From the NCBI RefSeq assembly GCF_016026235.1, contig NZ_CP065613.1: a DNA stretch of 64,000 nt. One strand, 5' to 3'. Position 1 is the stretch's first letter, and every line of letters starts with the position of its first letter. Source of the DNA: Escherichia coli (GTDB lineage Bacteria > Pseudomonadota > Gammaproteobacteria > Enterobacterales > Enterobacteriaceae). The notes beneath the pieces were generated by a model. The model saw only the letters and a program-made list of their open reading frames with translations. It had not been told where the DNA came from and did not search any database. The position numbers and the translations under genes are program-made. Shown here in pieces: positions 25,817 through 26,378 of the stretch.

Positions 25817-26316
25817 GCGAGTTCCCCGCGCCAGCGGGGATAAACCACCATATAACCCGTTATCTCTTTCTCAAGTTTTTATATTAGCAGTACTTGTAAT
25901 AAGCAACATATCCACGTAACACCTCATGTTCAAAATAGTTCTCCATGCCAGAGAAGTTCACAATTATCGATACAAAAAATTAAGTTTAATCAAAGTATTA
26001 TTTGTATGATTCTTAAATCATTAAGAAATTTTAATATATTATTTTTTTAATATTAATTAATGCCTGTTAATTTTTGCTTAAGTATAACAGTGTATTTTTT
26101 AAGCTTGTTATTCATTGATTAAGTAATAAATCTGGAAGTTTGTCTTTGTTTTGAGGCTAATGAGTGGTTTTACATAACCGCCTCTATACGCTGTTGATGA
26201 ATAGTTCTTATGAATAAAGATATTCAGTTCATACTTTAAGTGAAAATTGATAAAGTGCGATTCGTATTGTCTTTTATTCTAAAGACATCGAGTGTAGTTA
26301 ATATTCCTTGTAAAAA

Positions 26317-26378
26317 CAGGGATAAACCGAACTAGTTAAAGTTTTTATTATGTTCCCCGCGTCAGCGGGGATAACCAT
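26317..26378 (+). CRISPR. degenerate CRISPR remnant (partial repeat, short spacer, degenerate repeat)
   Basis: CAGGGATAAACCG (3' half of the repeat) at 26317-26329, about 20-bp spacer, then ATGTTCCCCGCGTCAGCGGGGATAACCAT at about 26350-26378; preceded by about 470 bp of AT-rich leader-like sequence. Confidence 0.65.

Follow-up and report, generated by a model that had tools for sequence, protein, structure and literature searches.

The CRISPR2.2 locus of Escherichia coli reportedly owes its name to Diez-Villasenor et al. in 2010. It belongs to CRISPR-II, which lies between ygcE and ygcF and occurs either as one array (CRISPR2.2-3) or as CRISPR2.2 and CRISPR2.3, 0.5 kb apart (PMC3903273). CRISPR2.2 is also described in two further reports (PMC4489801, PMC3737337); it consists of three type-2 repeats and two spacers, and these spacers are called 'invariable' (PMC4489801). 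B2 strains have a two-repeat CRISPR2.2-3 (PMC2941450), and the leader of the CRISPR-II array is known in the literature as leader2.3 (PMC3903273, PMC3737337). The same interval also appears in work on transcription in K-12, where Panyukov and Ozoline (2013) listed a 347-bp 'promoter island', 2901670_347 (ygcE/queE), in the coordinates of U00096.2, that was bound by H-NS in all ChIP data sets (PMC3661553). Promoter islands of K-12 contain many potential start sites and show little productive transcription; they bind RNA polymerase and H-NS, and almost no full-length RNA is made from them (PMC3661553). The E. coli CRISPR literature already covers the locus, where it lies, the invariability of its content and the variant in which CRISPR2.2 and CRISPR2.3 are not separated by the 0.5-kb block.

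We investigated this interval within a 64-kb stretch of E. coli DNA (the window). A preliminary description of the window had likened the repeat remnants before ygcE to CRISPR2.2, and this identification was borne out: the order queE, leader2.3, CRISPR2.3, 0.5 kb of intervening DNA, CRISPR2.2 and ygcE is the same in K-12, and alignment to the K-12 ygcF-ygcE intergenic region returned the same elements in the same order at ~97% identity. An 801-nt query around CRISPR2.2 matched 5394 of 5426 complete E. coli genomes. From the observed anatomy of the interval, its orthology to K-12, its distribution over genomes and the lack of leader homology, we conclude, with a probability of roughly 0.8, that CRISPR2.2 and the 0.5-kb tract before it represent the eroded, leader-distal tail of the CRISPR-II type I-E array, and not an independent array with a leader of its own.

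The upstream flank of CRISPR-II is formed by queE (ygcF; 23261-23932, plus strand), an ORF that we aligned to the annotated queE of K-12 and other genomes. It is followed by leader2.3, the leader of the CRISPR-II array (23933-24270, plus strand), comprising 338 nt of AT-rich DNA 5' of the first repeat; a query of queE and leader was covered over at least 80% of its length in 4559 of 5426 E. coli genomes. CRISPR2.3 itself (24271-24514, plus strand) contains four perfect 29-nt repeats and four 32-nt spacers, with the repeats starting at 24271, 24332, 24393 and 24454 (a spacing of 61 nt) and showing the exact type I-E consensus, GAGTTCCCCGCGCCAGCGGGGATAAACCG. Within the last CRISPR2.3 repeat we identified a 1.29-kb ISEc60-like insertion of the IS4 family (24524-25814, plus strand), which matches annotated ISEc60 at 99.5%, carries an IS4-family transposase (NF033591, E=1e-107) and lies between the two copies of a 12-bp target duplication, GGCGAGTTCCCC (24512-24523 and 25815-25826). 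Because the insertion duplicated 12 bp of its target, an intact CRISPR2.3 terminal repeat remains at 25819-25847 (plus strand); it matches the consensus at 28/29 positions, ends in ...ACCA, and is identical in K-12 and other strains.

Past this terminal repeat, the preliminary description had noted about 470 bp of AT-rich non-coding DNA, then half a repeat, a spacer of about 20 bp and a degenerate repeat, and we recovered every one of these elements in the places given for them. The AT-rich block between CRISPR2.3 and CRISPR2.2 (25848-26316) spans the 469 bp between 25847 and 26317, with a GC content of 26.9% compared to 50.8% for the window, and falls to 15-16% in individual 100-nt windows. 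CRISPR2.2 follows on the plus strand, with a decayed repeat, ATATTCCTTGTAAAAACAGGGATAAACCG, at 26301-26329, whose last 13 nt are the 'half repeat', a short invariable 'spacer', AACTAGTTAAAGTTTTTATT, at 26330-26349, and a terminal degenerate repeat, ATGTTCCCCGCGTCAGCGGGGATAACCA, at 26350-26377. The gene ygcE (26424-27902, minus strand), a 492-aa ORF of the FGGY family of carbohydrate kinases that is annotated as ygcE in matching genomes, begins 46 bp past the last CRISPR2.2 repeat. A GC-rich hairpin, GGCCGGGC-TGTTTCCC-GCCCGGCC, is located just past the ygcE stop (26393-26416, minus strand); it is presumed to be the ygcE terminator, and its position is kept in all Escherichia loci compared.

The likeness of 26317-26378 to the I-E repeat, when scored formally, goes beyond chance. 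The fragment CAGGGATAAACCG at 26317-26329 agrees with the 3'-terminal 13 nt of the I-E repeat at 12/13 positions, with a local score of 22 (null mean 13.2) that was reached by 0.05% of 2000 shuffles, and the degenerate repeat at 26350-26377 has a local score of 41, where no score above 22 was obtained in 2000 shuffles of the region. The 16 nt that precede the 'half repeat' (26301-26316, ATATTCCTTGTAAAAA) still match the 5' half of the repeat at 6/16 positions, so that 26301-26329 scores 18/29 as a whole 29-mer, and the 'half repeat' is more aptly described as part of a decayed repeat of full length. Ten of its 11 mismatches to the consensus are changes from GC to AT, and the sequence is identical in the divergent Escherichia E69 (CP089930); the 'half repeat' would then be a full repeat with its 5' half altered almost wholly by GC-to-AT substitutions. 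A predicted hairpin, UCCUUGU-AAAA-ACAGGGA, is kept where the stem of the repeat sits. Since C-to-T changes on one arm and G-to-A changes on the other preserve pairing, no selection is needed to account for it.

The spacer between the two repeats measures 20 nt in the register of the 29-nt repeat, or 21 nt as counted in the preliminary description, and the 21-mer has a GC content of 14%. It is identical in every E. coli aligned, indicating that the short spacer is no strain-specific deletion. We also considered whether it could be a shortened form of the 32-nt spacer of K-12, and rejected this, as the alignment of the two was not significant (P=0.21).

The window does differ from most E. coli in the number of repeats. 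CRISPR2.2 of K-12, O157:H7 and other diverse strains is made up of the decayed repeat, the 20-nt spacer, a middle repeat, ATGTTCCCTGCATCAGCGGGGATAAACCG, a 32-nt AT-rich spacer and the terminal repeat. Compared to K-12 and most E. coli, the window is without the middle repeat (29 nt) and the 32-nt spacer, 61 bp altogether, and it thus contains two repeats and one spacer where the canonical locus has three repeats and two spacers. All remaining parts are identical to the canonical locus, indicating that the window holds a deletion variant of CRISPR2.2. The 61-bp-deleted form was found in 52 records at 99% identity or above, with a single uninterrupted match in all 40 of the matches listed, and is present in about 50 complete E. 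coli genomes, including O145:H28 strains, NCTC86 and UMNF18. The two CRISPR2.2 repeats have TTATGTTCCC in common at their 5' ends, which suggests that recombination or slippage between repeats could explain the loss; presumably the 61-bp unit was lost in this strain through recombination between two CRISPR2.2 repeats. The deletion, together with the IS insertion in the neighbouring repeat, provides strain markers for CRISPR typing.

The preliminary description had gone further, and taken CRISPR2.2 to be a second array with its own leader. This part of it was not supported, since the AT-rich block is unlike both leader2.3 and leader2.1, no intact first repeat adjoins it, and the spacers are invariable. 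We nonetheless weighed the possibility that CRISPR2.2 is a separate, decayed array, and that the block is its present or former leader, with a promoter and an integration site. The block is situated 5' of the CRISPR2.2 repeats in the orientation of array transcription, it is AT-rich, as leaders are, its interior (~336 nt) is close in length to leader2.3 (338 nt), and the ~200 nt nearest to the CRISPR2.2 repeats are less variable within E. coli than leader2.3. However, shuffle-scored local alignments found no relationship between the block and leader2.3 (P=0.32) or leader2.1 of K-12 (P=0.11), and the 336-nt interior was likewise unrelated to them; the positive control, leader2.1 against leader2.3, gave P=0.004, and P=0.002 for their last 100 nt. 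Sensitive blastn searches and shuffle-controlled alignments, in which the block was set against both leaders and the whole K-12 CRISPR-I/cas locus, returned AT-rich noise only, and a consensus scan of the plus strand of the block, a kind of scan that offers weak evidence, detected no sigma-70-like site.

The repeats themselves point the same way. Of the CRISPR2.2 repeats, the one that adjoins the block has decayed furthest, with its 6/16 matches falling in the leader-proximal half, so there is no leader-repeat junction of the Cas1-Cas2 kind. The CRISPR2.2 spacers do not vary between strains, the 5' end of the block is itself decayed array in register with CRISPR2.3, and the last repeat and its flank form the end of a single array in lineages without the block. 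In addition, leaders are assigned to CRISPR2.1 and CRISPR2.3 only, and none to CRISPR2.2, in the reports cited here (PMC3903273, PMC3737337). We accordingly consider a leader of CRISPR2.2, whether present or former, to be very unlikely.

We identified traces of two further repeats at the 5' end of the block. The first is a decayed repeat-homologous position at 25880-25908 (plus strand), one unit (61 nt) past the CRISPR2.3 terminal repeat. The segment of E69 that aligns to it, TCGTTCCCTGTATCAGCAATAAATAACAT, matches the consensus at 15/29 positions and is likewise offset by 61 from the last intact repeat; in E. coli the repeat is nearly erased (10/29 in the K-12 copy, and 16/29 if either lineage may match). 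The second, TAGTTCTCCATGCCAGAGAAGTTCACAAT, at 25936-25964 (plus strand), has 16/29 matches to the consensus (P=0.007 for the block maximum), and 20/29 if E. coli or E69 may match, which none of 1000 column shuffles reached. On these alignments, we read the first ~120 bp of the block as two decayed repeat units in register with CRISPR2.3. It speaks against an eroded tail that the decay does not increase steadily along the array: the two repeats nearest to ygcE are better kept than those in the block.

The remainder of the block is harder to assign. Its interior (~335 bp) has no 61-nt periodic repeat signal, with the predicted phase ranking 27th of 61, and as no periodic trace is left there, descent from array can be demonstrated for only a minor part of the block. 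A more extreme version of the erosion would make the whole 0.5-kb block seven repeat-spacer units that have decayed past recognition. The CRISPR2.3 terminal repeat and the repeat at 26301 are separated by 482-483 nt in E. coli and by 489 nt in E69, and eight units of 61 nt make 488; between the decayed repeats of K-12 at 118 and 484 there are exactly six units (6 x 61); and the mismatches of the decayed repeats that can be recognised are almost all from GC to AT. The nearness of the 482-489 nt repeat-to-repeat distance to 8 x 61 is suggestive, not decisive, as a coincidence of this kind has a chance probability of roughly 5-20%. Moreover, the five predicted interior positions have no periodic signal, a GC-to-AT spectrum is expected for any AT-rich sequence set against a GC-rich consensus, and the better-kept neighbouring repeats suggest far too short a time for decay to 15-25% GC. 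We thus regard seven vanished units as quite unlikely. On the preferred reading, of an eroded array tail, the ~335-bp interior is AT-rich DNA that diverges at a rate consistent with neutrality, and may be either fully decayed array or an old insertion.

No ORF longer than 31 aa was identified in the block, and the longest one wholly inside it has 27 aa. The 31-aa ORF (26240-26335) extends into the repeat fragment, and a coding role for it was rejected, since non-synonymous changes, judged by eye, accumulate in E69. Searches of Rfam at E<=1 over 23000-27500 returned no relevant match. The block was found in 4166 of 5426 E. coli genomes, on the chromosome only, and is essentially single-copy, with one place, or rarely two, per genome. 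Three matches to 'plasmids' proved to be E. coli chromosomes of 4.8-4.9 Mb filed as plasmids; no true plasmid or phage homologue of the block was detected, and the other matches were AT-rich noise. We found no terminal inverted repeats in the block. An IS or MITE reading was rejected on these grounds, as the block has no terminal inverted repeats, one copy per genome, no plasmid or phage relatives and no ORF above 31 aa.

We surveyed other lineages for the structure of this interval, using a scan with the YgcE protein and one genome per species. Genera such as Citrobacter, Enterobacter, Cedecea and Buttiauxella have no CRISPR at this place, where queE and ygcE converge on each other across a short spacer. 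In E. albertii, E. whittamii and Nissle-type B2 E. coli, leader2.3 is followed by an array of one to three repeats, without the AT-rich block. These arrays end in a repeat close to the CRISPR2.2 terminal repeat, with T at position 13 and a shortened ...ATAACCA end, and their downstream flank is the same as, or nearly identical to, that of CRISPR2.2. Escherichia sp. MOD1-EC7003 has a similar terminus and also lacks the block; its available contig starts inside an IS that interrupts the array, and so does not reach the leader. As lineages without the block end in a like repeat and flank, the last CRISPR2.2 repeat (26350-26377), which is also the array end there, and its flank look like the original terminus of the array.

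The divergent Escherichia E69, by contrast to these lineages, has the block, although its centre is only 64-68% identical to that of E. coli. The adjacent ygcE shows 29% divergence at four-fold sites between E69 and E. coli, which matches the block centre, and this pattern is the one expected, and is consistent with vertical inheritance of the block and neutral evolution since the E69 split. On that account, the absence of the block from B2 E. coli would most likely be a secondary loss through recombination between the flanking repeats. The B2 terminal repeat has the form expected of such a crossover, with a GAG... 5' end and a ...TCAGCGGGGATAACCA 3' end.

This order of events, which we infer, bears on another origin for the interior, namely the arrival of mobile or foreign DNA in one repeat of a formerly unbroken CRISPR2.2-3, which would have split the array. 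Such an insertion would have duplicated ~12 bp of the 3' end of the repeat, leaving GGGGATAAACCA on the left and AGGGATAAACCG on the right. Single arrays without the block, in E. albertii, E. whittamii, MOD1-EC7003 and B2 E. coli, are in keeping with this, as are the near-identical repeat ends of 12-13 nt on both sides of the block and the 12-bp duplication that an IS in the same window produced in a repeat. AT-rich tracts bound by H-NS are, furthermore, usually tied to acquired DNA (PMC3661553). However, the block lacks the terminal inverted repeats of an inserted element, it is present once per genome and never on a plasmid, and has no phage or plasmid homologue. The decayed repeats in its 5' end, and the full-length one at its 3' end, are hard to reconcile with a simple target duplication, and the block was present, and has diverged neutrally, since the E69 split, so that its loss from B2 was probably secondary. 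We therefore think an insertion unlikely.

One part of the interval, a stretch of 200 nt (26140-26339), is unusually invariant. It takes in the decayed repeat, the 3' third of the block before it and the first part of the short spacer. In 3553 of 4157 genomes its identity is 99% or higher, a level that the 200 nt in the middle of the block reach in 1 of 4154 genomes and leader2.3 in 3 of 4562. Among five diverse E. coli, the block centre has 35 variable columns of 190, near the value for third codon positions of ygcE (16.8%), and the nearest 300 nt of ygcE have 13 variable third positions of 100. Only 4 columns vary among the 214 on the 3' side, which hold the short spacer, the decayed repeat and the ~180 nt of block before them, compared to 34 of 339 in leader2.3 (Fisher P=1e-4). 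Identity to E69 similarly climbs towards CRISPR2.2, from 64% to 82%, 88% and 100%. In the whole CRISPR-II locus of E. coli, no other non-coding stretch varies as little as 26140-26339.

The invariance is not predicted by a purely dead remnant, and counts against the remnant reading. Both purifying selection and a recent sweep or transfer of the segment are possible causes. The invariant part has fold z-scores of -3.9 and -4.4, and most of the E69 substitutions keep a predicted long hairpin. Covariation in this part was not significant with five sequences, with 98 of 500 shuffles reaching the observed value. We view a functional element under purifying selection as a doubtful explanation for 26140-26339; were there one, it may be a structured plus-strand RNA, an H-NS nucleation or regulatory site, or a cryptic leader.

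Part of the block corresponds to the promoter island known from K-12. The orthologue of island 2901670_347 maps to ~25866-26211 of the window, within the block. For this conversion, we used a genome-version offset of +1978, which follows from the published genome lengths, and which we checked on the casA/cas3 island against the annotation of K-12. In U00096.3, the K-12 counterpart of the block and CRISPR2.2 is located at about 2,903,440-2,904,020. As promoter islands make almost no full-length RNA, a silent AT-rich tract would fit the block better than an active leader. By its orthology to the island, the block would be expected to bind H-NS in this strain.

We additionally considered what CRISPR2.2 could still do as an immune locus. 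The CasE protein cleaves at the repeat hairpin, and type I-E crRNAs carry 32-nt spacers. No further I-E repeats or cas genes were identified elsewhere in the 64-kb window. Downstream of cysH, in the usual place of cas3, there is instead a hok-like ORF, followed by a truncated second ISEc60 copy that is cut by IS4, past which the sequence goes on into the recJ-prfB-lysS region. As it has no leader-repeat junction, and its content is invariable, the CRISPR2.2 remnant is most likely unable to take up spacers. It probably yields no usable crRNA either, because the upstream repeat is without the CasE hairpin sequence, the spacer has 20 instead of 32 nt, and there is no cas gene in the window. From established type I-E biology, the remnant is thus most likely inert in immunity.

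For annotation, this means that CRISPR2.2 should be recorded as the fossil tail of the CRISPR-II array, and not as a second array that bears a leader. The discovery value is otherwise small, since CRISPR2.2 has been published and the AT-rich tract already figures among the H-NS-bound promoter islands; a small point of remaining interest is that the 200 bp beside CRISPR2.2 vary so unexpectedly little.

Set beside the known systems, the locus differs from a functional I-E array in its geometry. Its repeats match the consensus at 23/29 positions ungapped (with one base deleted) and 18/29, and stand 49 nt apart around a 20-nt spacer, where the canonical arrangement is of 29-nt repeats at 61 nt with 32-nt spacers. 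The block resembles leader2.1 and leader2.3 in being AT-rich and 5' of repeats (leader2.3 has ~340 nt), but is dissimilar to them in sequence, adjoins no intact repeat, and has no sign of spacer uptake. It is the orthologue of a listed K-12 promoter island and shares the strong AT-richness of that class, with GC down to 15-25%, although the class is descriptive, defined by the density of predicted start sites and silent on origin, and the island does not reach the invariant 3' ~100 nt of the block. The CRISPR2.2-3 arrays of B2 E. coli (LF82/Nissle), E. albertii and E. whittamii have a like terminal repeat, flank and ygcE terminator, but unlike the window run unbroken from leader2.3, without the 0.5-kb block and the decayed repeats. 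CRISPR2.2 of K-12 has the same decayed first repeat, the same short spacer, the same terminal repeat and the same flank as the window.

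In 3553 of 4157 E. coli genomes, the 200 nucleotides directly upstream of, and including, the decayed repeat of CRISPR2.2, the CRISPR remnant beside ygcE (26140-26339), showed an identity of 99% or more. This segment varied less than both leader2.3, the leader of the neighbouring CRISPR2.3 array, and nearby synonymous sites, unlike the adjacent centre of the AT-rich block, whose rate of change fits neutral evolution.

The last CRISPR2.3 repeat contains an ISEc60-like element of the IS4 family (24524-25814), flanked by a 12 bp target duplication, GGCGAGTTCCCC (whole site 24512-25826). 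A near-identical right-hand junction was found in E. coli FDAARGOS_943, with one mismatch, located in the IS end, and in Escherichia sp. MOD1-EC7003 (L011) the end of a different IS4-like element likewise falls within a repeat. This suggests that the GC-rich palindrome of the CRISPR repeat is a favoured IS target.

Further insertions lie beyond ygcE. In other E. coli, ygcE is adjoined by the MFS transporter gene yqcE (425 aa product in K-12). At this position in the window (27929-28999) we found an IS1 transposase ORF on the minus strand (28496-28996), and all that remains beside it is an ORF of 176 aa that matches no family, indicating that yqcE has probably been broken by IS1. Farther along the window, cysH is followed (39105-41730) by a small hok-like ORF (39370-39522) and a second ISEc60 copy, which starts at about 39543 and is cut off at about 40303 by an IS4 (transposase, 40370-41716), after which the window continues into the recJ/prfB/lysS region. 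Thus, the cas-E operon, CRISPR2.1 and iap, none of which was found within the 64-kb window, are missing from their usual place.

The queE neighbourhood also occurs without CRISPR-II. In E. coli E41-1, an scr-type sucrose cluster of a LacI-family regulator, sucrose-6-phosphate hydrolase and PTS IIBC (L009, 3334-6335) lies immediately 3' of queE and replaces the CRISPR-II leader and array; the same arrangement was found in further E. coli among the matches listed whose match ends at the queE stop codon. In SCPM-O-B-8794 (L040), representing one Escherichia lineage, and in many other Enterobacteriaceae genera (L014-L038), queE and ygcE are direct, convergent neighbours separated by roughly 40-140 bp, and this interval contains no CRISPR, leader or AT-rich block. 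In Klebsiella spallanzanii (L039), about 20-21 type I-E-like repeats with 61-nt spacing (1440-2690, reverse-complement coordinates) were identified near queE; their placement differs from that of E. coli CRISPR-II, with some 2.6 kb between them and queE, on the flank opposite ygcE.
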